From Thermosulfurimonas dismutans (GTDB lineage: Bacteria > Desulfobacterota > Thermodesulfobacteria > Thermodesulfobacteriales > Thermodesulfobacteriaceae), in the NCBI RefSeq assembly GCF_001652585.1, contig NZ_LWLG01000004.1, positions 60,001-92,000 on the forward strand: a DNA stretch of 32,000 nucleotides. The letters are read 5' to 3'. Position numbers and translations under genes: made by a program. The notes beneath the pieces were generated by a model. The model worked only from the letters and a program-made list of their open reading frames with translations. It did no database searches and was not told the origin of the DNA. Below are positions 9,120 to 32,000 of the stretch, one piece after another (position 1 is the first letter of the stretch; each line of letters starts with the position of its first letter).

Positions 9120-9610
9120 TGGCCAAGGCCTTGATAATGGGGGTGGGAAACCTTCTTCTCTCGGACGAGGGTTTTGGAGTCCACGTGATAAGAGAATTCG
9201 AGAGAAAGTACCGTGTTCCGCCGGAGGTGGAAGTAGTGGATGGCGGTTGCGTAGGATTTTCGCTTGCAGATTACCTGCGGGAAAAGGATCTGGTGTTACT
9301 TGTGGATGTAATTGCGGATGAGGCTCCTCCGGGAAGTTATCGGGTCCTTTCGGCTCAGGAACTGGAAAGTTTTCCCACCGTGGGCCTCAATTCCTGTCAC
9401 CAAACAAGCCTGATCGAAGCCCTCAAATTTGCGGAGTTTGCGGGACTTAGGCCTGAAAGGTTCAAGATTTTTGCCGCAGTTCCAAAAAAGCTCTCCCCGG
9501 GTCTTGAACTTTCGCCGGCGTTGCAGAAGACCATACCGGTAGCCCTTAAATGGCTTGAAGAAGAACTGGTTTCAGCTGGATTTAGGGTGGAGAAAGGTCC
9601 ATGTGCGTAG
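9119..9610 (+). CDS. hyaD: Hydrogenase maturation endopeptidase (HyaD/HupD/HybD family)
   Basis: 163 aa. N-terminal MGVGNLLLSDEGFGVHV matches the GxGNxxxxD(D/E)GxG signature. Its start overlaps the stop of the cytochrome b gene by 1 nt. Confidence 0.85.
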   Translation: MAKALIMGVGNLLLSDEGFGVHVIREFERKYRVPPEVEVVDGGCVGFSLADYLREKDLVLLVDVIADEAPPGSYRVLSAQELESFPTVGLNSCHQTSLIEALKFAEFAGLRPERFKIFAAVPKKLSPGLELSPALQKTIPVALKWLEEELVSAGFRVEKGPCA

Positions 9611-9825
9611 GCGTGCCCATGAGACTTAAAGAGATAAATTACCCGGTGGGGACAGCTGAGGCCGAGGGGGTGGAGATGCCCGTTTATCTCCATCTGATCC
9701 CGGAAGAGGAACTTTCCCCTGGGGACTGGGTAATCGTACACGTGGGCTTTGCCATTCAGAAATTACGGGCTGAGGAGGCCCGGGAAACCTGGAAACTTCT
9801 AAGAAGTGCCCTTGGAAATGCATGA
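9601..9825 (+). CDS. hypC: Hydrogenase assembly chaperone HypC
   Basis: 74 aa with the hallmark N-terminus MCVGVPMRL. Confidence 0.85.
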   Translation: MCVGVPMRLKEINYPVGTAEAEGVEMPVYLHLIPEEELSPGDWVIVHVGFAIQKLRAEEARETWKLLRSALGNA

Positions 9826-10162
9826 AGCCAGTTTAGTCTCTGCCCTGGTAGAGAGCCTGCTGGATCTGAAGGCTCGAGAAGGAGCCAAAAAGATCGTAAA
9901 ATTCCAGGTAGCCATGGGAGAACTTTCCGGAGTAGATCAGGAAGCCTTTAACATGGCTTACGAGGCCTTAAAGGGCGTTGTTGAAGAGTTAAGAGATACC
10001 CGGATGGAGATTATTAAAATCCCGGCCAGGCTACGTTGCGAGGAATGTCAACGGGAGTTTTCCGGAGATTATTTTTCAGCCTGTCCGGAGTGTGGAAGTT
10101 ATATAAAAACCATCCTCTCAGGGGAAGAACTTGAACTCCGGGAGGTAGAACTAGAGGTCTAA
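9818..10162 (+). CDS. hypA: Hydrogenase nickel-incorporation protein HypA
   Basis: Start set at ATG 9818 (MHEASL...), overlapping the hypC stop. Zn site CEECQ...CPECG. Confidence 0.85.
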   Translation: MHEASLVSALVESLLDLKAREGAKKIVKFQVAMGELSGVDQEAFNMAYEALKGVVEELRDTRMEIIKIPARLRCEECQREFSGDYFSACPECGSYIKTILSGEELELREVELEV

Positions 10163-10830: not shown

Positions 10831-13108
10831 AAACCGGTGTCCTCATTCTCGTTTCGGGAAGGGTTCAGGGTGTAGGGTTCAGGCCCTATCTAGCCCGTCT
10901 GGCTAAAAGGCTTGCCCTTTCCGGCGAAGCCCGGAATGTTCCGGAAGGGGTAGAGATCAAAATCTTCGGAAGGGAAGAAAATCTCAGGAGCTTTCTCCAT
11001 CGGCTGAGGACCGAAGCTCCGGAGGTCTCTCACATCAAAAGCCTTGCGGTAAGGCCGCTTACAGAAGCTCCTCCGGAGACCTTCAAAATAACTCAAAGCC
11101 GGGCTGGACATCCCCAAACCTATGTACCTTCGGATCTAGCTACCTGTAAGGCCTGTCTTGAAGAAGTCTTTACCCCTTCGGATCGCCGCTACCTTTACCC
11201 CTTCACTAACTGCACGGACTGTGGCCCGAGATACACGGTGATCAAGGATCTGCCCTACGACCGCAAACGGACCAGTATGCAAGTCTTCCCCATGTGTCCA
11301 GAGTGCGAGAGGGAATACCTGGATCCGGGAAGCCGGCGCTTTCACGCCGAGCCGAACGCCTGTCCGGTGTGCGGCCCAAAACTCTGGATCACGGAGGCCT
11401 CCGGGGAGGTCTTGGCGGTCGAAGAAGCCTGGGATTTCGTGGTCCGTACCCTCAGGGAGGGGGCCATCTGGGCGATCAAGGGTCTCGGGGGCTTTCATCT
11501 GATCTGCGATGCCGAAAATGAGACCGCGGTACAAAAGCTACGGGAACGCAAAAAAAGGCCCACCAAACCCTTGGCCGTGATGGTGAGAGACCTGGAACGG
11601 GCCAGACTGGTGGCCGAAGTTTCGGCGGTGGAGGCCGAGGCTCTGCTTTCCCGGGCAGCGCCCATCGTTCTTTGTCGGAAAAGGTTCCCTTTCCCCCTTG
11701 CCGAAGCTGTGGCCCCTGGTATCGCTTTGGTGGGTCTCATGCTACCCTACACCCCCCTCCATCATATCCTGTTCCGGGCCTGGCCGGGGCTCGCCCTGGT
11801 CATGACCAGCGGCAACCTCTCCGAGGAACCCCTCTGCTATCGGAACGAGGAGGCCCTGGAAAGACTCAAGGCCCTTGCGGATTACTTTCTTCTCCACGAC
11901 CGCGAGATCGTAGCCCCGGTGGATGACTCCGTGGTGAGGTTTGCCGGAGGGATCCGCATCCTTGTCCGTCGGGCCCGGGGGTTTGCCCCGGAACCGCTTC
12001 CTCTTCCTCGCGAAGGCCCTCCGGTTCTGGCCGTGGGGCCCTCCTCAAAAATACCTTCACCCTTACCCGAAAAGCAGAAGCCCTTTTGAGTCCCCACCTC
12101 GGGGATCTGGAGGACGCCGAAACCCTGGCCCTGTGGGAGCGAACCTTTGAACACTATGTAAAGCTTTTTGGAGTAAGACCGAGAATAGTAGTAAGTGACC
12201 TCCATCCGGACTATCTCTCCACCAGACTGGCAGAGGAGATCGCCGAAAAGGAAGGGCTCCTACATCTGAGATTACAGCATCACGCGGCTCACGCTTACGC
12301 CGCTTTGGGGGTCCGGGCCGGACAAAAGGCCCTGGCCGTGGTTCTCGACGGAGCCGGTCTCGGTCTGGATGGAACCATCTGGGGCGGGGAAATCCTTCTC
12401 CTTGAGGGTGAACACTTTCGCCGGGTGGGGAGTTTGGAGCCCTTTCTGCTTCCAGGGGGCGAGGCCGCCGAGCGTGAGCCTTGGCGGGTGGCCCTGGCCT
12501 TTCTGAGGGATCTTTACGGCGGGGACGCCCTCTATCACCTTACGGGTTCGCTTGAATCCCTTCCGGAAGAAAAACTCAAAACGGTCTGGTTTCAGATCGA
12601 GAGGAAACTCCACACCCCTCTTACGAGCAGTGCCGGAAGGCTATTTGAGATCGTGGCCGTGCTTCTTGGGCTAGGGTGGCGCAATCACTACGAAGGTGAA
12701 TTGGCCCTGAGGCTTGAGAGTCTGGCCTCCCGGACCTCGGAGGAAAAGGTAAAACCTTATGCCGCGGGTTTTTCCCCGGAGTCGGGGCTCATCTCCGGGA
12801 GGGACCTAATTCTTTCAGTACTCAAGGATCTCAAAAGAGGTATCCCCCGGGAGCTGATAGCCTTGAGGTTCCATCTTGGGCTTTCCGGGGCCTTGGTGCG
12901 TGCCTGCAGGGAACTCGCCCGGAGATTCGAGGTGAGAGAGGTCTGTCTTTCCGGAGGCTGTTTCCAGAACGCCGTTTTCCTTGAGGCCACCCTCGAAGGC
13001 CTCATGCGGGAAGGCCTAAAACCCGTCTTCTCCGAAGAGGTCCCTCCCAATGACGGCGGTGTTTCCTACGGCCAGGCGGTCTGGGCCTCGCTAGCCAATC
13101 ACCTCTAG
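10827..13108 (+). pseudogene. hypF: Carbamoyltransferase HypF, split into two ORFs (10827-12089 and 12086-13108) by a 1-nt frameshift at the G run 12035-12038; either a true pseudogene or a sequencing/assembly error
   Basis: The N-terminal ORF has the acylphosphatase-like VSGRVQGVGFRPY, paired Zn fingers (CKAC..CTDCGPRY, CPEC..CPVCGPK) and a YrdC-like region. The conserved stretch continues in the -1 frame: frame 0 reads VLAVGPSSKI, while frame 2 from 12035 reads GALLKNTFTLTRKAEALLSPHLGDLED. The two parts total about 760 aa, the normal HypF length. Confidence 0.8.
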
Positions 13109-22662: not shown

Positions 22663-22717
22663 ACAATGCGAAGGATACTAGGAAATCTGAGGGCTCGAAA
22701 GGAGTTTTTTAATCAAG

Positions 22718-22791
22718 CGCCCCCGGGAGGACTCGAACCTCCGACTCCGGGATTAGGAATCCCGTGCTCTATCCGCCTGAGCTACGGGGGC
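22718..22791 (-). tRNA. tRNA-Arg (anticodon CCU)
   Basis: The reverse complement folds as a 74-nt cloverleaf: acceptor GCCCCCG/CGGGGGC, D stem GCTC/GAGC, anticodon stem CGGGA/TCCCG with loop TTCCTAA, T arm GGAGG-TTCGAGT-CCTCC, discriminator G. CCA is not encoded. Confidence 0.9.
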
Positions 22792-23167
22792 AAAGTGCCG
22801 AAATTGTTATTCTGTAGGAATCTTACCAGGATCAGCCCCTGGCTTCAAGAGCGTTCAAATCGGGTCAAAACAGACCAATTGCAATCAATTTTGCTTGCAG
22901 TTTGCTTGCACCCGTTAGCATGCTCATGGAGAGTTTTCAAAAGTGCCTTTATCACGCCCAATTCTTTTAAATGCTGGCAACCGACTTTAGCCACCGATAT
23001 CCTGCCGAAAACGATTTCGAAAGCCCTAAATTTAGGACTAATCACTGAAAATACTTAGGACTAATTGCGTTACAGCACTGTTTCACTCCGTTGTACAGGA
23101 TAAGTTAGTCTTTGAGGTTCCAGTTATCTTTCTCGTCACGCTACTTCACGACAGAGCCAACATTAAG

Positions 23168-24223
23168 CTAAAATCTATCAAATTTTTCCTGACCTTTAAG
23201 ATTATCAATTAAAAACTCTTTAAATTCTTTTTCAAATAAATTGAATGTTGTTTTTTTGAGCTCGGATAGATCTATAACATCATTTTCTTCAGAAATTAAT
23301 TTACTATAAATGCTTTTAACTATCTTTTCGTTTATTGTGTCTAAAAATCGGAAAGCAGAGGTTGCAAGATAAATTTGATTAATTTCAAAGGCAATCCATT
23401 TGCGACCTAATTTTTCTGCCGTTGCTCCAGTAGTATTTGAACCAGCAAAAATGTCTAAAACCACATCTCCTGGGTCGGTCAAAAACTTTATAAAAAATTC
23501 AGGGAGCTTTTGCGGAAATCTTGCAGGATGAGGTTTTACACCTACTATTTTACAACACCTTAAATATTGCGAATTACTTTCAGTATTTGGTATCTCAAGT
23601 AGGTTAGAAGGGATTGCTCCTCCCTTATTTTCAGAAAAGCGTTTACTTATGTTGTGTCCGGAAGGCCTTTTTTTGGGAGAATAATATTTTTCACTATTCT
23701 GAAGAAGAATTTTCATTCTTTCAGAATAAGGAACTAGTACTTTAGTAACATTTGCTTTGGGAAAATCGGATTTTGATAACCACCATATAGTATTAACAGC
23801 ATCTTTAACACGAATTTTGCGTTTGTTGACCCATTCTATAGGAGATGGAAGTTTAGATGGATTATACCAAAAAAATTCTTCTGCTAAATTCCATCCCTGT
23901 TCATCGCAAAGTCTTATAAGAAGTCTATAGTTATAAAGTGAACGTACAGGTCTCCCTTTAAGATAAACTCCTCCGAGGTCAAGTACAAAACTACCTGTTT
24001 TTTTTAATACTCTCTTTACTTCAATGGTAAAATTTAAAAGCCAATCTATATATTCATTTTGATCTACATTGCCGTAATCTTTTTGACGTTGTAATGGAAA
24101 TGGAGGTGAAGTTATTACAAGATCTATCGATTCTTCTGGTAGGAATTTAAGTAAACTCAAAGCATCTCCTACATAAGCTTCCCCTAAACGCGTTTTATAC
24201 AACAATTTGAACGAAGATTTCAT
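23168..24223 (-). CDS. Beta-class DNA methyltransferase (N4-cytosine/N6-adenine family; SPPF motif favours m4C)
   Basis: Start set at ATG 24223, in an ATGA overlap with the stop of the upstream gene (GGAG 6 nt upstream). Motif IV is DLVITSPPF near the N-terminus and motif I is DIFAGSNTTGATA near the C-terminus (order IV then I, i.e. beta class). Confidence 0.85.
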   Translation of the reverse strand: MKSSFKLLYKTRLGEAYVGDALSLLKFLPEESIDLVITSPPFPLQRQKDYGNVDQNEYIDWLLNFTIEVKRVLKKTGSFVLDLGGVYLKGRPVRSLYNYRLLIRLCDEQGWNLAEEFFWYNPSKLPSPIEWVNKRKIRVKDAVNTIWWLSKSDFPKANVTKVLVPYSERMKILLQNSEKYYSPKKRPSGHNISKRFSENKGGAIPSNLLEIPNTESNSQYLRCCKIVGVKPHPARFPQKLPEFFIKFLTDPGDVVLDIFAGSNTTGATAEKLGRKWIAFEINQIYLATSAFRFLDTINEKIVKSIYSKLISEENDVIDLSELKKTTFNLFEKEFKEFLIDNLKGQEKFDRF

Positions 24224-25689
24224 AAATTCTCCTCTAATCTCCAAATCCAGCTTGACATTATTTTCCAAAATACAGTCACAGCAAAATATACCTCTTTATC
24301 TTTCATCTTAATTTGTTCCATTCCATTGATATATCTCTGGGGATCCTGCATACCAATAATATAAGCAACCCATTTCCGAGCTTCTTCATCAGTCAAAAGA
24401 TCTAACATTTCTTCGAGTCTAAATTTTCCTGTCTGGCTTAATGCCCATGCTATTCCTGCTCTTTCTAATTCATTACTTTCTGAAAATTTTTTTATTATTT
24501 CAAAAGTAAATTGTCGAGCAAGTTTACTTAAAGCCCTAGCAGCTTCAATTTGTATATTTTTTTCAGTGGCATTAAAAGCTTCAATGAGTGCATCTATAGC
24601 TCTTTTGTTGCTCAGTTCTCCAAGAGCCCAAGCCGCTCCAGCACGTATTTCTGCATCTTGCTTCTTATCTAAAAGAATTTCTATTAACATTTGGCAAGAA
24701 GCATCATTATTAATTTCTCCTAATATTATCACAGCTTCTAATCTGCATTCTAAAGAATCATTTGTTAAGCATTGTTTAATAAATTCATATCCAATATCAT
24801 TTCCTTGTCGAAATAGACTTGCGGCTGCTTCAAGTTTTATAAGGAAATGTTCATATTGATCTTTAAGTTTCTTAACAAGAAGATCAGTAATCTCGGAAGA
24901 ATGAAAAAAAGCAAGGGCTTTTATAGCAGCATATTTATTAGTTAATAATGAACTAGAGAGCCACTTTATAAAATCTTCTTCTGAAAATAGCCTCTCACAT
25001 GGCAAAGTTGAGGTTACAGGAACTACAGAAGCTATGATCTGATTTTTAGTAATCTTTTCACCTTCTTTGACCAAAGGCTTCAATCTTTTGTTTTGCTTCC
25101 AAAGTTTTAAAGGTATAATTCTTCCGTTACTTTCTTTTCGATATTTCAACCGATCAGACTCAATTGATATAACAGTCCCGGCTGCCGAAGCAATACTTGC
25201 CGGCCATTGTATTCTCATCTCAAAACCTTCTTCTGCTCCTTTTGGTTGGGTTAAAATGGTAAGATTGTTTTGGTGGGCTAATCGTAAATCTCTAACAGAC
25301 ACATATTGAATAGGACCGTCTATTTCCCAAGATAATGGATTATTTCCTATTTGTTTGCATGCAACAAATGCAACAAAATCGTCATCTTTTAAGCCATAAT
25401 CCCATTTCCGATTTTGATTAGATTCAGAATGAGACATAGAAATTTCAAGTTTACTTTTTGCTCTACATTCAATACATCTTCCGCATTTTATACAAAGCAA
25501 ATCAGGAACTCTAATGCGTTTAATTTTTATCTTTTTCCAAATTTTAAAGCTCATTGATCCTCGTTCTAATTCAATAGGCTTATGTTCTAACTTTTTTAAA
25601 TGATCAAAGATAGCTATGGTTCCTGTTGCGCCAAGAGAAATTTTTTTTAAAAAACTCTCATCAGATTTAAATGCCTTTCTATTCGCCAT
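24220..25689 (-). CDS. 489-aa fusion protein: N-terminal PD-(D/E)xK-like nuclease signature with a CX2CX2CX2C cluster, a central barrel-like segment, and C-terminal HEAT/PBS-lyase-like repeats
   Basis: VPD63LLCIKCGRCIE74CR76AKSK resembles the PD...ExK strand pair (xPDLIxxKxGxxxxIEVK) with K replaced by R. GTVISIE...LVKEGEKITKNQIIASV resembles a lipoyl/hybrid-barrel motif. Repeats: ECRLEAVIILGEINNDASCQMLIEILLD, EIRAGAAWALGELSNKRAIDALIEAF, IQIEAARALSKLARQ, ELERAGIAWALSQTGK. AAGGAG lies 9 nt upstream of ATG 25689. Confidence 0.65.
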   Translation of the reverse strand: MANRKAFKSDESFLKKISLGATGTIAIFDHLKKLEHKPIELERGSMSFKIWKKIKIKRIRVPDLLCIKCGRCIECRAKSKLEISMSHSESNQNRKWDYGLKDDDFVAFVACKQIGNNPLSWEIDGPIQYVSVRDLRLAHQNNLTILTQPKGAEEGFEMRIQWPASIASAAGTVISIESDRLKYRKESNGRIIPLKLWKQNKRLKPLVKEGEKITKNQIIASVVPVTSTLPCERLFSEEDFIKWLSSSLLTNKYAAIKALAFFHSSEITDLLVKKLKDQYEHFLIKLEAAASLFRQGNDIGYEFIKQCLTNDSLECRLEAVIILGEINNDASCQMLIEILLDKKQDAEIRAGAAWALGELSNKRAIDALIEAFNATEKNIQIEAARALSKLARQFTFEIIKKFSESNELERAGIAWALSQTGKFRLEEMLDLLTDEEARKWVAYIIGMQDPQRYINGMEQIKMKDKEVYFAVTVFWKIMSSWIWRLEENL

Positions 25690-25737
25690 CTTATGATACT
25701 CCTTTTTTAGTACGCATTCTCAATAAGATGCGAGTTT

Positions 25738-26373
25738 TTAGTACTTCTTGATCTTCTGGCACACCACGCCCACGATTTCGTGCTCGTCGGTCAATTCGAT
25801 TTCCGGGTATTTTGGATTCAGGGGGCGGAGGATCCGCTTGTCGCCGTAAACCTTGAGTTGCCTCAGCACGGCCTCGCCCCTGCCGTTGCACGCCACCACG
25901 TAGCTCCCGGAGATGGGCCTGCGGGTGGGGTCCACCACAATGATGTCCTCCTCCGTGAACTCGGGCTCCATGGAGTCGTCGTTGACTCTCAGGGCGAAGG
26001 CTCGCGGGCTCGCAGGGATCACCTCCACCCAGTCCCAGTGCTCCTCAGAGGCGCGGTCGGCCACCTTGAGGCCGTGGGAAGAGAGCTCTGTAGCTCCCCA
26101 GGTTTTGATCCAGCTCCAGGGGACCACCGGCACCTTCTCAACCCTCCTCACCTCAAGCCCCGCGGCCTCGGCAACCTCCTCAAAGGGCACCCCGAGGCCC
26201 AGGGCCAGCTTCTTCAGCGTTTCCACCTTGGGCTTTCGCTCGCCACGCTCAAGGAGCCGGATGTACTTCTCCGAGAGCCCGCTCCGCTTCGCGAGCTGGT
26301 TTATGGAGAGCCCCGCCTCCTCCCGCTTCCTGCGCACCCATTCGCCGAAGCTCACAGCCACACCTCCTGACAT
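25738..26373 (-). CDS. CI/LexA-like repressor: N-terminal XRE-type HTH plus C-terminal S24 autopeptidase domain
   Basis: HTH: LSINQLAKRSGLSEKYIRLLERGERKP. S24: ALRVNDDSMEPEF (catalytic Ser) and VLRQLK (Lys). An alternative start is GTG 26355, preceded by AGGAGG at 7 nt. Confidence 0.85.
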   Translation of the reverse strand: MSGGVAVSFGEWVRRKREEAGLSINQLAKRSGLSEKYIRLLERGERKPKVETLKKLALGLGVPFEEVAEAAGLEVRRVEKVPVVPWSWIKTWGATELSSHGLKVADRASEEHWDWVEVIPASPRAFALRVNDDSMEPEFTEEDIIVVDPTRRPISGSYVVACNGRGEAVLRQLKVYGDKRILRPLNPKYPEIELTDEHEIVGVVCQKIKKY

Positions 26374-26397
26374 TTGTCCTATCCAAAAACTTTTCTC

Positions 26398-26426
26398 TTG
26401 ACAATTTCGGACTTTTGTCCGATAAT
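26398..26426 (+). promoter_or_regulatory. Near-consensus sigma-70 promoter of the Cro-like gene; probably gives a leaderless mRNA
   Basis: TTGACA (26398-26403), a 17-nt spacer, then GATAAT (26421-26426). The A of ATG 26433 is 7 nt after the -10 hexamer and no SD sequence intervenes. Confidence 0.6.
26406..26421. promoter_or_regulatory. Operator candidate O-a: TTCGGACTTTTGTCCG (inverted arms CGGAC/GTCCG) inside the promoter spacer
   Basis: The exact 16-mer recurs at 26639-26654. The inverted repeat sits between the -35 and -10 hexamers. Confidence 0.55.
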
Positions 26427-26432
26427 AAAACC

Positions 26433-26669
26433 ATGTCCACCGTTCACTTTAATCCGGAGGTCCTGAGGAGGCTAAGGGAGGAGATGGGGCTCACCCGCGC
26501 CGAGCTTGAGGCCAGAAGCGGCGTGGACCGGGACACCATCTACGCCTGGGAGAGTGGCCGAAGGACGCCCTCGGCCCGGAGGCTGGCCCAGGTCGCCCAG
26601 GCCCTCGGCGCAAGGCTCGACGATTTTTTTGGCCCGTGTTCGGACTTTTGTCCGCAAAAAGATGGCTAG
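26433..26669 (+). CDS. Cro-like XRE-family HTH protein
   Basis: 78 aa from ATG 26433. HTH: LTRAELEARSGVDRDTIYAWESGRRTP. Divergent from the CI-like gene. Confidence 0.75.
   Translation: MSTVHFNPEVLRRLREEMGLTRAELEARSGVDRDTIYAWESGRRTPSARRLAQVAQALGARLDDFFGPCSDFCPQKDG
26639..26654. promoter_or_regulatory. Operator candidate O-b: second exact copy of TTCGGACTTTTGTCCG, 8 nt upstream of the replication gene start
   Basis: Identical 16-mer to 26406-26421. It lies within the 3' end of the cro-like gene. Confidence 0.5.
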
Positions 26670-27534
26670 CCCCCAGGTGGAAAACGGCTACACCAGGATC
26701 GCGAACGAGCTCCTGGAGGCCCTCTGCCGGGCCAGGCTCGGGAGCCGGGAGCTCAAGGTAGTGCTGGCGGTGGTGAGGCTCACATACGGCTTTTTGCGCA
26801 AAGAAAACACCATCTCCCTGGGAAAGCTTGCGGAAATGACGGGGTTGAGAAGAGAGAGGCTCTCAGAAGTGGTCAAAGCCCTTGAGCGGAAAAATGTCCT
26901 GCGGGTCAGCAAGGAAAATGGCCGGCTGATCCTGGGACTGCAAAAAGACTACTCCAAGTGGACGGGAGGGGTGTCCCAAAAACGGGGTACCCCAAAATTG
27001 GGACTGTCCCAAAAAAGGGTGTCCCAAAAACGGGGAACAGGGTGTCCCAATTTTGGGGAACAGGGTGTCCCAAAAAAGGGGAACACCCACACCCCTCAAT
27101 CCCTTGAGTCTCAAGCGTTTCACGGCCCCCTAAAGAAAATATATAAAGAAAACTTTAAAGAAACATCATCTATCTACAGAGAGGACGACTTCAAAGAAGT
27201 GATCTCCAAGTGGGAGGAGGTCTTCGGGGAGGCGTTTCCCCTTGAGAGGGCGCCGGAGAGCGTGAGGGCGGCGGACTTCATGCTTTACCTTCACGAGGCC
27301 GGGAGGCTCCCCGCGGTGAAGCGCCCCTCGGCCTACCTGAGAAAGCTTGCCGCGAGCGAGCTTGAGCCTTTCCCGAGCCTCGCCGAGCGGCGGGCCGCGG
27401 CCCGGGACGCAGAGGAGCGGATGCGCGAGCTCAACCGCCAACAGCTCGCCAAGCTCTACGCCCGCATGATGGCCGAGGGCTGGCCGGTCGAGGTCCCCGA
27501 GGAGCTCAGGCCCCTTGTGGCCCAAACCCAATAG
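26662..27534 (+). CDS. Phage replication initiator, lambda O-like N-terminal domain
   Basis: Start set at ATG 26662. MASPQVENGYTRIANELLEALCRARLGSRELKVVLAVVRLTYGF matches the replication-protein-O N-terminal pattern (nGyT.ipNellE.l....L...e.rvll.i.R.TyG). The iteron array and AT-rich patch lie inside the linker-coding part. Confidence 0.75.
   Translation: MASPQVENGYTRIANELLEALCRARLGSRELKVVLAVVRLTYGFLRKENTISLGKLAEMTGLRRERLSEVVKALERKNVLRVSKENGRLILGLQKDYSKWTGGVSQKRGTPKLGLSQKRVSQKRGTGCPNFGEQGVPKKGNTHTPQSLESQAFHGPLKKIYKENFKETSSIYREDDFKEVISKWEEVFGEAFPLERAPESVRAADFMLYLHEAGRLPAVKRPSAYLRKLAASELEPFPSLAERRAAARDAEERMRELNRQQLAKLYARMMAEGWPVEVPEELRPLVAQTQ
26971..27088 (+). repeat. Iteron array (putative ori): at least five copies of (G/C)TGTCCCAA(A/T)4-5(C)GGGG, the last three on a 23-bp period
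   Basis: Copies at 26971-26987, 27004-27019, 27019-27035, 27042-27058 and 27065-27081. An inverted variant CCCAAAATTGGG lies at 26991-27002. GGGGAACAGGGTGTCCCAA repeats exactly at 27032-27050 and 27055-27073. Confidence 0.75.
27131..27180. other. AT-rich patch next to the iterons (candidate DNA-unwinding element)
   Basis: TAAAGAAAATATATAAAGAAAACTTTAAAGAAACATCATC has 7 G/C in its first 40 nt, within an element that is otherwise about two-thirds GC. It starts about 45 nt after the last iteron. Confidence 0.5.
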
Positions 27535-27541
27535 GGGTTAA

Positions 27542-27555
27542 GTGAAAATTTTCAC
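27542..27555. promoter_or_regulatory. Perfect 14-bp palindrome GTGAAAATTTTCAC between the replication gene and the next gene
   Basis: The sequence equals its own reverse complement. It is AT-rich in a GC-rich context and lies 14 nt upstream of ATG 27569. Confidence 0.35.
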
Positions 27556-27568
27556 AAAGGGGGTAAGC

Positions 27569-27763
27569 ATGGTGGAGCACGAGATCAAAAAGCTCATGGC
27601 GGAGTTCGGGCCGGAGGCTGTGCTCAGCGCCGTCTCCGAGGCCCTCTCCCGCTGGGTGAGGGTGACCGGCAGGTGTCTTCTGACCGGGCGCAGGCTTGCC
27701 CACGAGAAGATCTGCGGCTACTGCCGCCGGTGCCCGGTGAAGCCCCTTGAGAGGAGGGCCTGA
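27569..27763 (+). CDS. Small hypothetical protein (64 aa) with C-terminal CxxCxxC
   Basis: AAAGGGGG lies 6 nt upstream of ATG 27569. The C-terminus contains CGYCRRC. Its stop overlaps the rusA start (TGATG). Confidence 0.5.
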   Translation: MVEHEIKKLMAEFGPEAVLSAVSEALSRWVRVTGRCLLTGRRLAHEKICGYCRRCPVKPLERRA

Positions 27764-28254
27764 TGCTTGCGGTCTTCGTGCGAGGGGTGCCCAGGCCCCA
27801 GGGGCGGCCGCGGATCGTGCGCTTCGCGAACGGGAAGGCCGGGCTCAAGGACCCGGAGGCCAGCCGGGACTGGAAGAACTACGTGCGGATGTGCGTGGCC
27901 GAGAGGGTGGCCGAGCCCCTCTCCGGGCCGGTGGCCCTGGAGCTCTGGTTCTACCTTCCAGTGCCGAAAAGTTTCTCAAGGAAAAAGCGTCTTGCGGCCC
28001 TTTCCGGGGAGATCCTACCGGCCAAAAAGCCCGACCTCGACAACCTGGTCAAGGCGGTGCTCGACGCCATCCTGGGGGTGGCCGTGCTCGACGACCGGCA
28101 GATCGTGGAGCTCCGGGCTGGAAAGCTCTACGGGGCCGTGCCCGGGGTGGAAATCGTCGTAAAGGAGCCCGGGGAGTCCAGCTCAAAATCCCTTGAAAGG
28201 AGGAACGGATGCCGAGCTACACCCACGAGTTTGCTATCCGCTGCGTGGCTCTGA
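27763..28254 (+). CDS. rusA: RusA-family Holliday junction resolvase
   Basis: GVPRPQGRPR..., KKPDLDNLVKAVLDAILGVAVLDDRQIV (the RusA catalytic Asp cluster). Confidence 0.85.
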   Translation: MLAVFVRGVPRPQGRPRIVRFANGKAGLKDPEASRDWKNYVRMCVAERVAEPLSGPVALELWFYLPVPKSFSRKKRLAALSGEILPAKKPDLDNLVKAVLDAILGVAVLDDRQIVELRAGKLYGAVPGVEIVVKEPGESSSKSLERRNGCRATPTSLLSAAWL

Positions 28255-28439
28255 AGGAAAAGAGCGACCAGAACGTAGTGGAGGTCAAGCTTGAGATGGT
28301 GGTGCGGGACACGGAGGACCTCTCCTTCATCATGGACCTGGTGCGCCTCAAGCAGTTGCCCCTGGTCACGGTGAGCTTCCACTCGCCGCAACAGAGGCTT
28401 CCCCTGGAGGGAAAGGTTGAGTCTCGCCCTGCTAATTAG
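28209..28439 (+). CDS. Hypothetical protein (76 aa)
   Basis: Strong RBS AAGGAGGA 5 nt upstream of ATG 28209. Overlaps the rusA tail by 46 nt. No recognisable motif. Confidence 0.5.
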   Translation: MPSYTHEFAIRCVALKEKSDQNVVEVKLEMVVRDTEDLSFIMDLVRLKQLPLVTVSFHSPQQRLPLEGKVESRPAN

Positions 28440-29028
28440 CCTCGCCCTCCTTGCGGCGGCCCCGGCCCTGGCCGAGGACCCGGTGTCCTTCATCGTGGCC
28501 CGGAGCCCGGAGCTCTCCGAGCTTTCAAGCTTCAACCGGAGCCGGCTCTCCAACCTCACGGTCAAGCTCCGGGGCACGGTAAAGCAGGGCCAGGAGACGC
28601 TCTCCGGCCTCACGGCGGAGGAGAGGGCCCGGGTCGGCTACGACCTCAGGCTCATCGCCGAGCTCCCGCTTTTCTCGCCCAAGGAGCGCCTGGAGATGAG
28701 GCTCAGGGAGCTCAGGCTCAGGCGGAGGGTGCGCCAGGAGGCCGCTAGAGCTGTGGCCCGCTACCGGAGCCTCAAAAAGACCGTGGCCAGGAGGCAGGCC
28801 CTGGTCGCCGCCGTCCGGGAGGAGTGCCTCTGGCTCAAGCGCAGGGTGGAGGCCGGGCTTGAGCCCTCGGAGCGGGTCATCTCCTGCGTGAAGGAGCTTG
28901 AGGGCCAGAAGGAGAAGCTCGAGACGCTCCGGGAGGAGCTCTCCGAGGCCCTTGAGACCGTGCTCTCAATGGTGGGGCCGGGGGACAGGGAGCGCCTCAA
29001 GGAGATCCTGGATGCGGAGGATCGTTAG
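28417..29028 (+). CDS. Secreted or membrane-tethered coiled-coil protein
   Basis: TTG start with GGAGGG 6 nt upstream. Signal-like MSLALLISLALLAAAPALA|ED. Long Arg/Glu/Leu heptad-like region (RLEMRLRELRLRRRVRQEAARAV...LEGQKEKLETLREELSEALE). Confidence 0.55.
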   Translation: MSLALLISLALLAAAPALAEDPVSFIVARSPELSELSSFNRSRLSNLTVKLRGTVKQGQETLSGLTAEERARVGYDLRLIAELPLFSPKERLEMRLRELRLRRRVRQEAARAVARYRSLKKTVARRQALVAAVREECLWLKRRVEAGLEPSERVISCVKELEGQKEKLETLREELSEALETVLSMVGPGDRERLKEILDAEDR

Positions 29029-29647
29029 CTCGTTTCAGAGGATCGGCCGGAGGTTCTACGGCACGGTCTCGGTTAAGGCCTTCGGCCGCAGGGTGGATCA
29101 CTTCCGGCTCCGGGCCGGGATGAGCGTGCTCATCGAGGGCGGGCCGCTTTCCGGGAAAACGGCCTTCCTGCGGCGCCTGGCCTCTCAGCTCGCCGAGCTC
29201 CGGGAGCCCGTAATCTTCATTGATGCCACTTCCCCAGTGACCAAGTGGCTCTCCGAGGTCACGCCCCCGGTGCCCCTGAGCGCGAGGAAGGCCCTCTCCT
29301 GGAGGCTTGCGAACCTGCCGGAGCGGTTCTACCTCCTTCTCGACAACGCCGAACGGGTGGCCGACGGCCAGAAGCTGGAGGTGGTGCTGGAGCTCCTGGC
29401 CAGGGCCCGCACCGCGGTGGTGGCCGGGCGATCCTACTCCTCCCTCCACCCAAGGCTCCAGGCCCGCCTGCGTGAGGCCAAGGTGGTCTCCCTGGGTTGC
29501 GGGGCCGACACCTTCGACGCCACCTACGTGCTCGTAGCCGTGCTCATCATCTTGGTGGCGCTCTCCGGGATGCACCACCTGGTGCTCCTGGCCGCGGCCG
29601 TGCGCTACCTCTTCCAGGGGATCAGGATCGGGGGCCGAAGGATATGA
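29012..29647 (+). CDS. P-loop NTPase (AAA-like) with C-terminal transmembrane helix
   Basis: Start set at ATG 29012 (AAGGAG 7 nt upstream). Walker A GGPLSGKT, Walker B-like FYLLLDNAE, and a hydrophobic tail YVLVAVLIILVALSGMHHLVLLAAAV. Confidence 0.6.
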   Translation: MRRIVSSFQRIGRRFYGTVSVKAFGRRVDHFRLRAGMSVLIEGGPLSGKTAFLRRLASQLAELREPVIFIDATSPVTKWLSEVTPPVPLSARKALSWRLANLPERFYLLLDNAERVADGQKLEVVLELLARARTAVVAGRSYSSLHPRLQARLREAKVVSLGCGADTFDATYVLVAVLIILVALSGMHHLVLLAAAVRYLFQGIRIGGRRI

Positions 29648-30240
29648 CCTGGCCGAGCCACATCCTCATGGGGATCGCGCTTGCCAAGGGCTTCGACCTT
29701 TCGCTTCCCTGGTGCGTGGCCGGGAGCCTGTTTCCGGATCTTGCCGAGATGCTTGCGAGGCGCATCGTGGTCCGGGGGAAAGCGGTCTTCGTCGGCCTCC
29801 CCCAGATCGCCCACCGCACCTACACCCACTCTCTGCTCTTCGCCGGGCTTTGCCTCCTTGCAGGCTGGGGAATCTTCCCGATCCGGAGCTTCTTCGCCGG
29901 GGTGCTCTTTGGGCACCTGCTTCTCGACGCCCTCACCGTGATGGGCGTTCCGGTGGTTGACGGGAGGCACCGCAGGGTTACCCTTTTCGGAGGGAAGATC
30001 CGCACGGGGTCGCTCGCCGAACTCGTGGCGGTGCTGGCCCTCGCGTTCACCACCTACGCCGTGGCCCCAGCCGTGAAGGTCGGTGGCCTTGAGGACCTCT
30101 ACCAGCAGGGGGTGATAGACAGGTATGAGTACGAAAAGAGAAAGAAGGCCCTTTTCGATCTTCTTCTTTGGCGCCACTCTGGCCCTCCTCCTTCTCGGCA
30201 CCTTCCTCCCTCTGTGGAGCGCCTACTCGAAGAGCCTTGA
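29644..30240 (+). CDS. Membrane-bound metal-dependent hydrolase, YdjM/DUF457-like, with SHOCT-like C-terminal segment
   Basis: ATGA overlap with the preceding stop. MTWPSHILMG, FPDLAE, AHRTYTHSLLF and GHLLLDALTVMGVP match the DUF457 pattern. The tail LEDLYQQGVIDRYEYEKRKKALFDLL resembles a SHOCT domain. Confidence 0.7.
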   Translation: MTWPSHILMGIALAKGFDLSLPWCVAGSLFPDLAEMLARRIVVRGKAVFVGLPQIAHRTYTHSLLFAGLCLLAGWGIFPIRSFFAGVLFGHLLLDALTVMGVPVVDGRHRRVTLFGGKIRTGSLAELVAVLALAFTTYAVAPAVKVGGLEDLYQQGVIDRYEYEKRKKALFDLLLWRHSGPPPSRHLPPSVERLLEEP

Positions 30241-30664
30241 GGCCCGGGTGGTTAAGGTTTACGACGGGGACACGGTAACGGTTCTGCTGGGTGGGCGGCG
30301 CGAGAGGGTCCGTCTCATCGGGATAGACTGCCCGGAGCTCCGTCAAAGGCCCTGGGGAAAGCGCGCCAGGGACTTTCTGAGGCGGCTCGTCCTGCACCGC
30401 ACCGTGCGCCTGGAGCTGGATGTTGATCCCTGGGATCGCTACGGGCGCCTCCTGGCCTATGTGTGGCTTGACGGCGAGCTCGTGAACGAGACCCTGGTCA
30501 GGGAGGGGCTCTGCCTGATCTACACCGTGCCGCCCAACGTGAAGCATGCGGAGAGGTTCCGGGAGGCCCAGAGGTGGGCCAGGGAGCACGGCCGGGGCTT
30601 CTGGGCCGAGGGCGGGCTCTCGGAAACGCCCTACCAGTGGCGCAGGCGCCACCGCAGGCACTAG
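30125..30664 (+). CDS. Thermonuclease (staphylococcal nuclease/SNase-like) with N-terminal membrane anchor
   Basis: VYDGDTVTV, RVRLIGIDCPE and DRYGRLLAYVWLDG are SNase signatures. N-terminal helix FSIFFFGATLALLLLGTFLPLW. A later GTG start (~30247) would remove the anchor. Confidence 0.8.
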   Translation: MSTKRERRPFSIFFFGATLALLLLGTFLPLWSAYSKSLEARVVKVYDGDTVTVLLGGRRERVRLIGIDCPELRQRPWGKRARDFLRRLVLHRTVRLELDVDPWDRYGRLLAYVWLDGELVNETLVREGLCLIYTVPPNVKHAERFREAQRWAREHGRGFWAEGGLSETPYQWRRRHRRH

Positions 30665-30678
30665 CCTCCGCCTTCCAT

Positions 30679-30695
30679 CCCCCACCCACCCGCCC
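30679..30695 (-). other. Canonical G-quadruplex / i-motif sequence (minus strand GGGCGGGTGGGTGGGGG)
   Basis: The plus strand reads CCCCCACCCACCCGCCC: four G3+ tracts on the minus strand separated by 1-nt loops, 15 nt after the nuclease stop codon. Confidence 0.6.
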
Positions 30696-31162
30696 TTCCT
30701 GCGGCCCTTGCGGGCCGGGGGCCTCGCCCCGCCTAAGCCGGGGGGCGGGCCTCGGCCCCACCGGGCGATCCGGCCCGTCCGGGTGGGCTCGCCCGCACCT
30801 GGGGTCCGGCCCGAAAAAGAAATCTAACCCACCGAAAATGCGCCTCTAAACGGCCCATATTTGGCCTCTAAGAGGATTTTTTTGGCCAATAGTATCGAAC
30901 ATATCGGGGCGAGAAAATCGATTCTGGGGCGAATCTGAGCGGATTTTTCACCGGGCTTGTCCTGGGACCACCTAACGGCTAGGGCCACCTAACCGGGTCA
31001 TGATTTGAGTTGAGTTTCTGGCTCGCCACAGCCTCCCCCGCCACCGGCGCCCCCCTCCCCCGAAGTGCTCGGCCCCCTCCCCCCGCCGCGCCGTCGGCCT
31101 CGCCCCCGCTCCAGGGGGAGGGGGCCTGCGCTGTCTTTGAGGCTCGGTGCCTCCGGTGCCGT

Positions 31163-31227
31163 GGGAAAGGCTGGAAGCGTCCTGCGGTGGGAAAAGCCCG
31201 TGGAATAGAAACCTTCCAGCCTTTCCC
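31163..31227. repeat. Perfect 15-bp inverted repeat GGGAAAGGCTGGAAG / CTTCCAGCCTTTCCC with a 35-nt loop
   Basis: The arms at 31163-31177 and 31213-31227 are exact reverse complements. They lie in a region with no convincing genes. Confidence 0.7.
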
Positions 31228-31506
31228 CCTCTTTCAGTTGTAGCCCTCCGGCCCCTTATGCGGCGCAAGGCCTCCGGCCCCTGACGGGGCCTCCGCAAGC
31301 TCGCTCCGGGGCTTTGCCCCTCCGCTCGGCCTTGCCCCGCGGGGCCTCCGGGCTGTTCCAAAAGTGCGGGGTTCGGCTGGGGAAAAAGGCTTTTGGGTTT
31401 TTTTGGCCTGGGGGCCTTGGGGCTCTGTGCCTCCGGGGCCTGTGGGTCCGGCCCTTCCGCCTGCGGTGGGGCCGGCCCGTTAAAAAAACTTTTGGGGGTG
31501 TGGCTA

Positions 31507-32000
31507 TGGGCGGCGTTTCTCCCTTGGCTTGCCTTCCGGTTTTTTCGGCGGTTTCGGTCTCGGCGGTGGCCTTCGGGGGCGGGGCGGTGCTCCGGCGCTC
31601 GTCCCGGTCGCTCTCCGGGTTCGTGGCCTGGTGCTGGTTCCCGTCCTGGGGGCTTGCCCGGCGGTGGGCCTCCTTCTGGGCCGGGCGGCTTCCGGCCGCG
31701 TGCCGGGGCGTGGTGGTGCGCCGGGCGCCGTTTCCGGCCTCGGGGTGGGTGGTTTCCGTGCCGGTGCTCCCTCGGGTGGGGGCGTGCCGTGGTTAGGTTG
31801 CCGGGGTGGGCTTCGGCGGCCGGGGGCCGGGTGCTCCGGGTTCTCGGCCCCGCGGTGACGGTCTGGTTCCCCTCCGGGTTTCTGGCCCAGGCCTTCGCCC
31901 TCTCCTGCGGGCTCTCCCCGGCTCGGGCCTTCCGGGCGCCCTCCGGGGGCTTTGCCGTGGTGGTGCCGGCCTCGGCCCTCTCCTCCGTCCGGCCCCGGTG
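31507..32000 (+). other. Adenine-free tract on the + strand (T-free on the - strand), running to the window edge
   Basis: Direct count: no A in 31507-31794 (288 nt). Only three A (31795, 31858, 31889) in 31507-32000. The tract is G > C > T in composition. Confidence 0.95.

Follow-up and report, generated by a model that had tools for sequence, protein, structure and literature searches.

Anatomy and conservation of the block

We analysed a 32,000-nucleotide stretch of the Thermosulfurimonas dismutans genome (contig NZ_LWLG01000004.1, positions 60,001 to 92,000; 'the window' below, numbered from its first letter), in which the sequence and the list of its open reading frames (ORFs) place a block of four plus-strand genes at 28417-30664. 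We name them CC, for coiled coil, PL, for P-loop NTPase, YdjM and SNase; two small ORFs nearby are called s76 and s73. CC (28417-29028) encodes an apparently Sec-exported protein resembling a single repeat of TolC and other outer-membrane factors (OMFs), PL (29012-29647) an AAA+ type core followed by a C-terminal hydrophobic hairpin, YdjM (29644-30240) a metal-dependent hydrolase of the YdjM/DUF457 family, identified by Pfam, with a C-terminal SHOCT-like helix pair, and SNase (30125-30664) a nuclease of the staphylococcal type with an N-terminal signal or anchor (Pfam SNase, E-value 1e-24). The module formed by these genes is real, rare and conserved. Each domain belongs to a known superfamily and the combination, as far as sequence comparison can tell, matches no described system.

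The genes are closely packed. CC opens with TTG at 28417 and closes with TAG at 29026-29028, past the ATG of PL at 29012 (a 17-nucleotide (nt) overlap); YdjM starts at the ATG at 29644, inside the ATGA of 29644-29647 in which PL ends (4 nt), and SNase starts at the ATG at 30125, upstream of the YdjM stop (TGA, 30238-30240), for an overlap of 116 nt. The s76 ORF (76 amino acids (aa), 28209-28439) also overlaps CC, by 23 nt. The three overlaps within the block are exactly those given in a preliminary description of this DNA, which took the four genes to be translationally coupled; they proved to be real, linked and co-conserved in 13 lineages.

The contigs carrying homologues of PL and YdjM (designated below by L numbers) display the same gene order in at least 13 diverged lineages: genes for a repressor, Cro, a replication initiator, a Holliday-junction nuclease and a protein that is either small or secreted precede CC, PL and YdjM, and a nuclease gene usually follows. 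CC, PL and YdjM were found adjacent in all 13 lineages recovered, and their order is kept down to 36-45% identity amid swapped neighbours. The stop of PL and the start of YdjM overlap as NTGA in 13 of 13 lineages; the Shine-Dalgarno sequence, GGAGG, falls in the conserved Gly-Gly-Arg/Lys codons at the C-terminus of PL. This 4-nt overlap alone is universal. The two others are lineage-specific: the CC/PL junction ranges from the 17-nt overlap to a 71-nt gap, and the 116-nt YdjM/SNase overlap occurs only in the window's own clade. All four genes are under purifying selection, with pairwise dN/dS values of 0.16-0.40; the highest, 0.36-0.40, are those of CC, whose faster evolution is as expected of an exposed protein. 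Synteny in 13 lineages at 36-89% protein identity, combined with these dN/dS values, places the block beyond chance. A search of one genome per GTDB species gave two loci, and the JGI metagenomes four.

Could the four genes be mere neighbours, morons without relation to each other on a shared transcript? Each of their domain families is common by itself, none is known to be functionally linked to another, and both the nuclease and the small ORF upstream can be exchanged. However, an order of CC, PL and YdjM that persists in all lineages to such low identity despite swapped flanks, and a universal start-stop overlap between PL and YdjM, make this explanation very improbable.

Around the trio, genes are exchanged from lineage to lineage. 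RusA is replaced by VRR_NUC in L006, L015, L018, L020, L021 and L024, RepO gives way in some lineages to unrelated proteins of 278 and 307 aa, and the tyrosine integrase alternates with a large serine recombinase. The position of s76 holds elsewhere another small ORF or a secreted beta-rich protein; in L023 and L025 it is occupied by signal-peptide proteins of 247 and 222 aa, respectively. Pfam returned only a weak DUF5008 match for the secreted protein of these distant lineages, and its pattern, which we read as IPT/TIG-like, suggests a cell-surface function. The slot after YdjM contains SNase, a PLD-family fragment (L024) or nothing (L006/L007); the L018 contig stops about 300 nt past YdjM, and no SNase is seen there. 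L024 itself (a 1.47 Mb contig; 9361-10004 and 11012-11182) has a decayed module in which PL is split into ORFs of 130 and 83 aa. Its PLD-family (PLDc_2) fragment sits at the usual place of SNase, which may have been replaced here by an unrelated nuclease family.

The preliminary description had pictured the block as a membrane-associated nuclease machine. Since the nuclease is absent from L006/L007, has a PLD-family fragment in its position in L024 and lacks a signal in L003, L001 and L012, it is not the centre of the module but a dispensable part; the invariant core is the OMF-half, the ATPase and the hydrolase, that is, CC, PL and YdjM. The same description held that catalytic parts lying in different compartments would speak against a single machine, and the ATPase and the SHOCT-like tail are indeed predicted to be cytoplasmic, with CC and most SNases exported.

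The four proteins

In our alignments the N-terminus of every CC homologue is hydrophobic and carries small residues at -3 and -1; the window copy has the cleavable-type signal, ending ALA|ED, that had been pointed out before. A conserved motif, D-P/A-[VL]-x-F-[IM]-V-x-x-[NS]-P-[ED]-[LI], follows the signal. An AlphaFold2 model (pLDDT 79), for which the alignment was built from database homologues, has helices at residues 22-28 and 31-44, strands at 48-54 and 76-82, and helices at 88-145 and 151-183. A 58-residue helix and a 33-residue return helix thus stand behind two short helices and two beta strands, an order of elements that we take to be that of one TolC structural repeat. By inspection, the two strands are amphipathic, with hydrophobic and polar residues alternating. 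When the model was compared with the PDB using Foldseek, nearly all top ranks were OMFs (5azs, TOprJ1, OprM, CusC, TolC, VceC, SilC, OprN), aligned over about 195 columns with TMq around 0.5 and E-values of 0.025-1.

At the sequence level, OEP (PF02321) is the sole specific Pfam family that recurs among CC homologues, matching 5 of 15 with a best E-value of 0.0021, all sub-threshold; the window CC has no OEP match at E<0.1 and does not reach the gathering score. The Dissulfuribacter homologue bears the UniRef name 'Heavy metal RND efflux outer membrane protein, CzcC family'. The length of CC, 182-226 aa, is that of a single repeat rather than the two tandem repeats of an OMF. Alignment with hhalign to the single E. 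coli TolC and CusC sequences gave probabilities below 1%, with two non-significant local matches on the NPEL helix and on a beta-strand/PLF motif, and a PDB sequence search with CC returned nothing. Two cysteines lie 20 residues apart around the tip of the helix-turn-helix, both present in five lineages and both missing in six; such a co-varying pair fits a disulfide in an oxidising compartment, the periplasm. These observations give moderate support to CC being an exported single-repeat OMF-like protein, whose chains could assemble in the outer membrane into a barrel like that of TolC, extended by a helical tunnel in the periplasm.

The coiled coil had earlier been likened to a spanin. We rejected CC as an inner-membrane spanin (i-spanin), given its small residues at -3/-1, the conserved DP past the cleavage site and the lack of an uncleaved anchor. 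In place of a spanin topology, it has a cleavable signal and one TolC/OMF repeat, with no holin, endolysin or outer-membrane spanin (o-spanin) alongside: the ORF list for 28400-29100 includes no ORF with a lipobox, and Pfam and PHROGs revealed no lysozyme, amidase or holin family.

In Pfam and NCBIfam, PL stays below the threshold of every curated family. The window copy has weak AAA_22/STAND-type Pfam matches (the best, AAA_22, at 18.3 bits against a cut-off of 27), no NCBIfam match better than E 0.03 and, in PHROGs, only a weak thymidylate-kinase match. Run against PDB sequences, the PL profile found matches at the level of Walker A only, the low E-values of RecA being due to repeated chains. 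Close homologues all keep the same Walker A (GGPLSGKT) and Walker B (YLLLDNAE) motifs; across the family (50 members), G43, G48 and K49 are invariant or nearly so, a Walker B of the form hhhhD[DNQ] is shared, and AAA_22 is the commonest Pfam match (31/50), besides AAA_16, NACHT and nSTAND. That the aspartate is followed by N, D or Q, not E, presumably makes PL a switch rather than a motor, as in STAND and ORC-type NTPases. A word index retrieved 7 homologues among 5.8 billion clusters and a full HMMER scan 56 clusters at 50% identity, nearly all of about 160-240 aa. Most of these relatives align over essentially the entire profile, C-terminal hydrophobic region included.

In the window PL, where a C-terminal helix had been noted, this region consists of two hydrophobic segments, about 35 residues in all. 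In the AlphaFold2 model (pLDDT 76) the chain begins with a beta meander, continues with an ASCE core of five strands and ends with two helices, each about 16 residues long. No part of the protein is better conserved than the hairpin motif, GADTFDATY...LAAAxRYLFQGxRxGG. PL represents a small, new family, AAA_22-like, whose hydrophobic hairpin at the C-terminus is conserved; we infer that this hairpin holds the AAA_22/STAND-like switch ATPase on the cytoplasmic face of the inner membrane. In one 417-aa fusion (P0074), the PL domain is joined to an N-terminal domain that is not recognisable. Two other identities were tried for PL and rejected: a Zot/pI-type inovirus ATPase, as there is no Zot among the Pfam matches listed and the element is double-stranded, with O-type replication and a Holliday-junction resolvase, and a PRD1/PM2-type packaging ATPase, as there is no match at the level of FtsK/HerA and no jelly-roll capsid candidate among the ORFs of up to 200 aa.

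YdjM matches its Pfam family (PF04307) at 41.6 bits, over a cut-off of 29. In seven lineages H6, D32, H57, H62, H91, D95 and D106 are invariant, a His/Asp set compatible with a zinc site of the phospholipase C (PLC)/P1-nuclease superfamily; the sequence LYxxGxIDRYEYE is invariant as well. Profile comparisons have assigned YdjM to this superfamily, which also includes the S1/P1 nucleases, and predicted it to be a membrane-disrupting phospholipase, its domain being related to the membrane-disrupting alpha-toxin phospholipase C and serving as a C-terminal toxin, again a predicted phospholipase, in RHS proteins (PMC8557891). The C-terminal SHOCT match (PF09851) is sub-threshold, at 22.3 bits against 27; a SHOCT-like motif, LYxxGxIDRxEYE, is present in 10 intact, fully read YdjM copies, including versions of 161-164 aa, and has been lost from the decayed copy of L024. 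Helices of SHOCT type are predicted to hold domains at the inner leaflet of the membrane (PMC11237479). We thus predict YdjM to be a zinc hydrolase embedded in the inner membrane, with its SHOCT-like tail on the cytoplasmic side. In E. coli, ydjM is under the control of LexA, in the SOS response, and we know of no YdjM protein for which an activity has been demonstrated. An exact-sequence look-up of the window YdjM gave no record, and a PDB sequence search with YdjM gave nothing.

SNase matches PF00565 at 87.3 bits (cut-off 21) over profile positions 1-106 of 107, and the NCBIfam thermonuclease NucI at E 1e-26. The motifs DGDT, RLxGIDxPE and RYGRLLAY are intact in the alignment, with residues that we take to correspond to D21, R35, D40, E43 and R87 of staphylococcal nuclease. 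As for the N-terminal helix noted earlier, it is present as a signal or anchor in the window copy, and signal peptides are found in the window clade, L020, L021, L023 and L025; it is missing from L003, L001 and L012, where a different, soluble N-terminal region stands instead. Degrading incoming DNA would be a reasonable role for an exported SNase, that is, for this one gene.

Some of these features would also be compatible with a function in replication and host takeover. PL would then be a membrane-tethered AAA+ protein of the initiator clade, DnaC- or DnaA-like, organising replication of the element at the membrane; YdjM, as a P1-type nuclease, would degrade host nucleic acid for nucleotides together with SNase, and CC would be unrelated. 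The nearest Foldseek neighbours of the PL core are DnaA, Cdc6, Hda, RFC and phage DnaC-like loaders (TMq about 0.44), no helicase loader is encoded beside RepO, and the module shares its operon with repO and rusA. Membership of S1/P1 nucleases in the YdjM superfamily (PMC8557891) points the same way, as do the signal-less SNases of L003, L001 and L012, which would be cytoplasmic. However, TM-scores this low reflect a generic AAA+ core, with no lid domain or DnaC-type motifs, three genes lie between PL and RepO in every lineage, and the hydrophobic hairpin of PL is better conserved than its ATPase core. Most SNases (those of the window lineage, L021, L023, L025 and L020) have signal peptides, and the exported CC, with a position as conserved as those of PL and YdjM, would be left unexplained. 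We regard a takeover function as unlikely.

The element and its relatives

What kind of element carries the module? In L003, the ends of the unit overlap over 476 nt at 92% identity and are bridged by an independent assembly, L004, which makes this unit a circle of about 10.9 kb. It encodes a tyrosine integrase, an HTH_17 excisionase, an S24 repressor, cro, RepO and the module; its other ORFs, several of them small and unannotated, have no Pfam match and no structural match in PHROGs, and no virion gene is recognisable in this complete circular member. Judging from their gene content, such units would constitute an undescribed family of integrative elements of about 11 kb, DNA-damage-inducible and capsid-less, in vent sulfate reducers.

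Both the size of about 11 kb and the set of int, xis, repressor, cro and rep genes resemble those of phage satellites, and the element could be a helper-dependent satellite, packaged by a helper phage, with the module as a cassette that supplies or accelerates lysis and in which YdjM hits the inner membrane and CC, as a spanin analogue, the outer one. In lambdoid phages, late and lysis genes begin after the nin/rusA-type genes; the module follows genes of this type and comprises envelope-directed proteins. Yet no endolysin, holin or o-spanin lipoprotein was found and CC has a cleavable signal and no anchor, packaging or capsid-redirecting genes were not recognised by Pfam or PHROGs, and induction would proceed through the S24 repressor (SOS) rather than a helper, with no late regulator. 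A satellite lysis cassette is, in our view, distinctly unlikely.

In the window, the four genes appear to be the distal half of one early operon: cro, repO, s73, rusA, s76, CC, PL, YdjM, SNase. The S24 repressor to which the block had been ascribed is confirmed by Pfam as an HTH_3 plus Peptidase_S24 protein of the CI/LexA type (25738-26373, minus strand; S24 E-value 1e-21, HTH_3 E-value 1e-15). In the interval between repressor and cro, a sigma-70-like promoter, TTGACA-17-GATAAT (26398-26426, plus strand; 11 of 12 consensus positions), faces the block running from cro to SNase. It is the sole plus-strand promoter-like site within 25600-31600, by a sigma-70 consensus scan in a phylum whose promoters are poorly known, and a scan of the same interval revealed no plus-strand terminator inside the block. 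Given this sole promoter and the lack of an internal terminator, we read cro to SNase, genes that abut or overlap all along, as one repressor-controlled operon, so that the module should be silent until induction.

The first half of the operon, also on the plus strand, begins with a gene for a Cro-like HTH protein (26415-26669; Pfam HTH_3, E-value 9e-16). Its true start is probably an internal ATG at about 26433; the L003 homologue begins MFIHFNPEVL. Next comes repO (26662-27534; Pfam Phage_rep_O, E-value 5e-24), a replication initiator gene of the lambda O type, inside which four direct repeats, GGGTGTCCCAAAAANGGGGAAC, spaced by 23-48 nt at 26965-27085, look like a lambda-type iteron origin. 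It is followed by s73 (27542-27763), a semi-conserved ORF of 73 aa with tblastn matches in L011, L008, L012 and L003, by the gene for the RusA Holliday-junction resolvase (27763-28254; Pfam RusA, E-value 1e-29) and by s76, whose soluble product is conserved, by alignment, in the close clade.

On the other side of the repressor, the interval 23168-25689 contains two minus-strand genes of 32-34% GC, one for a type II DNA methyltransferase (23168-24268; PADLOC MTase_II, E-value 4e-154), for which no restriction endonuclease partner was identified, and one for a 489-aa HEAT-repeat protein (24220-25689; HEAT-type matches). The content of this slot varies (SIR2_2 in L021, a protein with multiple transmembrane segments in L003, a HYExAFE-like protein in L001), and the position is a hotspot for defence-type cargo.

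Defence had been among the functions first suggested for the block, and the module might serve in conflict or abortive infection. PL would sense an invader or DNA damage and license YdjM as a membrane-destroying phospholipase toxin, and the exported nuclease would act as a periplasmic block to transformation or in superinfection exclusion, protecting the element and the host population. The use of YdjM as a C-terminal toxin, a predicted phospholipase, in RHS proteins (PMC8557891) is in keeping with this, as are the AAA_16, NACHT and nSTAND-type matches of PL with its hhhhD[DNQ] Walker B, the transformation-blocking periplasmic DNases documented on mobile elements (IdeA, SxnA and Dns; PMC12378983) and the defence genes (methyltransferase, SIR2) that the elements carry. 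PADLOC-DB 2.0 returned generic matches only: the ZorA coiled-coil tail at E 6e-5, a weak match of PL to mad8 at E 1e-4 and, for SNase, a generic SNc+LTD candidate, with no match for YdjM. The module proteins satisfied no described anti-phage system model of that database. Moreover, the module belongs to the core of the element, whereas the defence-type cargo occupies a separate, variable slot; it lies in a repressed early operon, where no separate promoter for it was detected, and should be off in a lysogen; the 13 contexts recovered are all in the same type of element (13/13) and none is in a defence island; and the exported TolC-like protein is left without a role. A defence function in the lysogen is therefore disfavoured, the sole promoter being repressor-controlled, and degradation of incoming DNA remains reasonable for the exported nuclease alone. 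For the module as a whole we consider a conflict function possible, though rather doubtful.

The window element appears from its sequence to be integrative and SOS-inducible, with a size that we estimate at 11-13 kb, and inserted beside tRNA-Arg. To the left of about 22.8 kb lies ordinary chromosome, with genes for a LeuA-type synthase, aspartokinase, MiaB-like radical-SAM enzymes and HypF, and tRNA-Arg. This tRNA-Arg(CCT) gene (22717-22791, minus strand) adjoins the left element end, which is marked by an element-end sequence at 22855-22910 with 89% identity over 56 nt to L003 4219-4274, located in the circular form between the integrase and the cargo gene. The element-end sequence is 64 nt from the 5' end of the tRNA gene and not within its 3' end, so that the attachment core is not the usual tRNA 3' segment. 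The right element end and the integrase lie beyond the window. GC content is layered, from 43-60% in the chromosome to 32-34% in the cargo pair, 61-66% in the element core and up to 72% after 31000; sister elements have 44-66% GC, and the window element's clade is far richer in GC than its host chromosome.

About 350 nt downstream of the nuclease gene, a C-rich non-coding element with a 13-bp GC hairpin is found at 31020-31132. This element, of about 110 nt with a perfect hairpin, is 79-90% identical to its copies in L001 (12415-12523), L003 (11040-11133 and 132-224) and L004; the flanking proteins there share about 60% identity. Its fold z-scores are -1.8 to -2.5, and it has no Rfam match (30600-32000, E<=1); over the whole window Rfam gave nothing beyond tRNA. 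It is a candidate for a cis site (packaging, transfer, recombination), a terminator or a small RNA. The stretch of about 2 kb past the nuclease gene (30665-32000; L003 10515-11376 and 1-1100) contains no convincing protein gene. Its ORFs are rich in P, G and R and of low complexity on either strand, and those tried as genes (a 160-aa plus-strand ORF at 31314-31796; 198-aa and 154-aa ORFs in L003) were rejected, as they look like low-complexity artefacts of the GC-rich DNA. Window 31575-32000 is 71% identical to L003 525-941, with similar tblastx scores on both strands. The stretch would be either non-coding or the site of a disordered basic protein encoded on the minus strand and running off the window.

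The hosts of the family are Thermodesulfatator metagenome-assembled genomes (MAGs), one 'Deltaproteobacteria' MAG, Dissulfuribacter thermophilus (with the locus near DBT_1827) and Desulforhabdus sp. TSK. The last has two near-identical PL members (GKT10648.1 and GKT10515.1) on different contigs, which implies two co-resident elements. L025, binned as an Aenigmatarchaeota archaeon, has the core of the element in full, with a serine recombinase, S24 repressor, cro, rep, RusA, a secreted beta protein and the module including SNase; this may be a binning error or else a surprising host range for a module with an outer-membrane-type protein.

The preliminary description had not recognised the four-gene combination as a described system, and this impression was borne out: no specific match was found in PADLOC, PHROGs, NCBIfam, INPHARED, PLSDB or IMG/VR. 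INPHARED phages and PLSDB plasmids yielded nothing by tblastn, and neither did IMG/VR with the PL, YdjM and CC profiles or with two distant PL relatives. We give little weight either way to the absence from IMG/VR, since virus-prediction pipelines have missed such elements.

A possible role in envelope breaching or egress, and comparison with known systems

We favour the view, with a probability of only about one in three, that the module is an envelope-breaching or egress apparatus deployed at induction. Cleavage of the S24 repressor would switch on replication and the module together; the module would breach or remodel the envelope, and the replicated element would leave by lysis-like release, in vesicles or by direct export. 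Inner-membrane lipid would be the target of YdjM, controlled by its coupled ATPase, PL, and in the outer membrane CC would make a channel or a lesion. The exported nuclease, an optional and exchangeable add-on, would remove unprotected DNA. Because of the NTGA overlap, PL and YdjM should be made in fixed proportion, and they may well act as one complex.

The main argument for egress is the constancy of the trio while its neighbours are swapped, by which it behaves like a transmission module and not like cargo; such a constant trio amid exchanged genes is typical of transmission modules, and the variable cargo slot lies beside the repressor. The OMF fold of CC, its Cys pair, the secreted beta-rich protein and the kinship of YdjM to alpha-toxin also speak for it, as do the circular L003 unit with no structural match, the single promoter-like site at the repressor/cro interval, the universal PL/YdjM overlap and the purifying selection on all the genes. 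Several observations weigh on the other side. Genes for a peptidoglycan hydrolase, a holin, a membrane-fusion adaptor, a relaxase or a capsid were not found, which leaves no known egress route complete, and no component has a characterised orthologue. For the OMF assignment, sequence scores are sub-threshold and the E-values from Foldseek weak (0.025-1, with TMq of about 0.5). PL is without the catalytic Glu after Walker B (it has DN, DD or DQ), and so is more switch than motor. Lastly, an exported non-specific nuclease would be counter-productive for the release of naked DNA, and co-expression with replication genes offers no obvious lysis timer.

A more specific possibility, which we hold to be improbable, is capsid-less self-transmission: the SOS-induced CC, PL and YdjM, joined in some lineages by an adhesin-like secreted protein, would build a vesicle-type or trans-envelope apparatus for DNA release, with the C-rich hairpin as its cis site. 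If true, transfer of the kind known for pleolipoviruses or plasmid vesicles would have a counterpart in double-membraned bacteria, and the elements would be mobile elements of a new kind. If the trio serves, more generally, for the transmission or egress of a temperate element without a capsid, small elements would have a new exit route from double-membraned cells, and YdjM/DUF457, a family whose E. coli member is a long-known SOS gene, would gain its first functional context. Even on a conservative view, the analysis adds a family of elements not described before, of which Dissulfuribacter thermophilus and Desulforhabdus sp. TSK are cultured hosts, and a new AAA_22-like ATPase family of 56 clusters at 50% identity.

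How does the module compare with systems already described? Its YdjM resembles E. coli YdjM/YbcI in its above-threshold Pfam match and in a control linked to DNA damage (by LexA there, by the S24 repressor here), and differs in its SHOCT-like tail, its obligate coupling to a dedicated ATPase and its residence on a mobile element. Like IdeA and SxnA of Vibrio integrative and conjugative elements and Dns of Campylobacter CJIE1 (PMC12378983), SNase is an exported non-specific nuclease on an integrated element. It belongs, however, to another enzyme family, lies in a repressed early operon at the tail of a larger module, and is absent or signal-less in some lineages. CC shares with lambda Rz/Rz1 a periplasmic coiled coil, disulfide-forming cysteines and a position downstream of a rusA/nin-type region, but it has a cleavable signal and beta strands with a TolC-type repeat, and comes with no o-spanin, holin or endolysin.

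At the level of the whole element, satellites of the phage-inducible chromosomal island type are similar in their size of about 11 kb, integrase, excisionase, divergent repressor/cro, own initiator, lack of virion genes and defence-type cargo slot. Unlike them, the element has no terS, capsid-size or helper-interference gene recognised by Pfam or PHROGs, several of its small ORFs being unannotated; its S24 repressor implies SOS induction and not a helper-specific one, and its hallmark module is envelope-directed. Pleolipoviruses have a conserved cluster of a spike, an internal membrane protein and a putative NTPase (PMC5882103). With the element they share a small genome (7-17 kb), a constant block of membrane protein and NTPase, exchangeable replication genes and the lack of a capsid. 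The resemblance is architectural only, with no homology to their spike, membrane protein or NTPase found in PHROGs; they infect single-membraned archaea, the module here includes a hydrolase and an OMF-like protein, and no particle of our element has been seen.

The closest structural likeness of CC is to the OMF family (PF02321), with which it shares a Sec signal and the succession of short helices, two strands, a very long helix and a return helix. OMFs have two repeats per chain and form a trimeric 12-stranded barrel, whereas CC has a single repeat (about 180 residues) and would need six chains. In contrast with tripartite efflux and type I secretion, Pfam found no ABC, RND or MFS transporter and no membrane-fusion adaptor in the window element or L003; here, the partners of the OMF-like protein are instead a small hairpin ATPase and a YdjM hydrolase. 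The internal duplication of OMFs implies an ancestor of half their size, and the single-repeat CC is possibly a living example of it.

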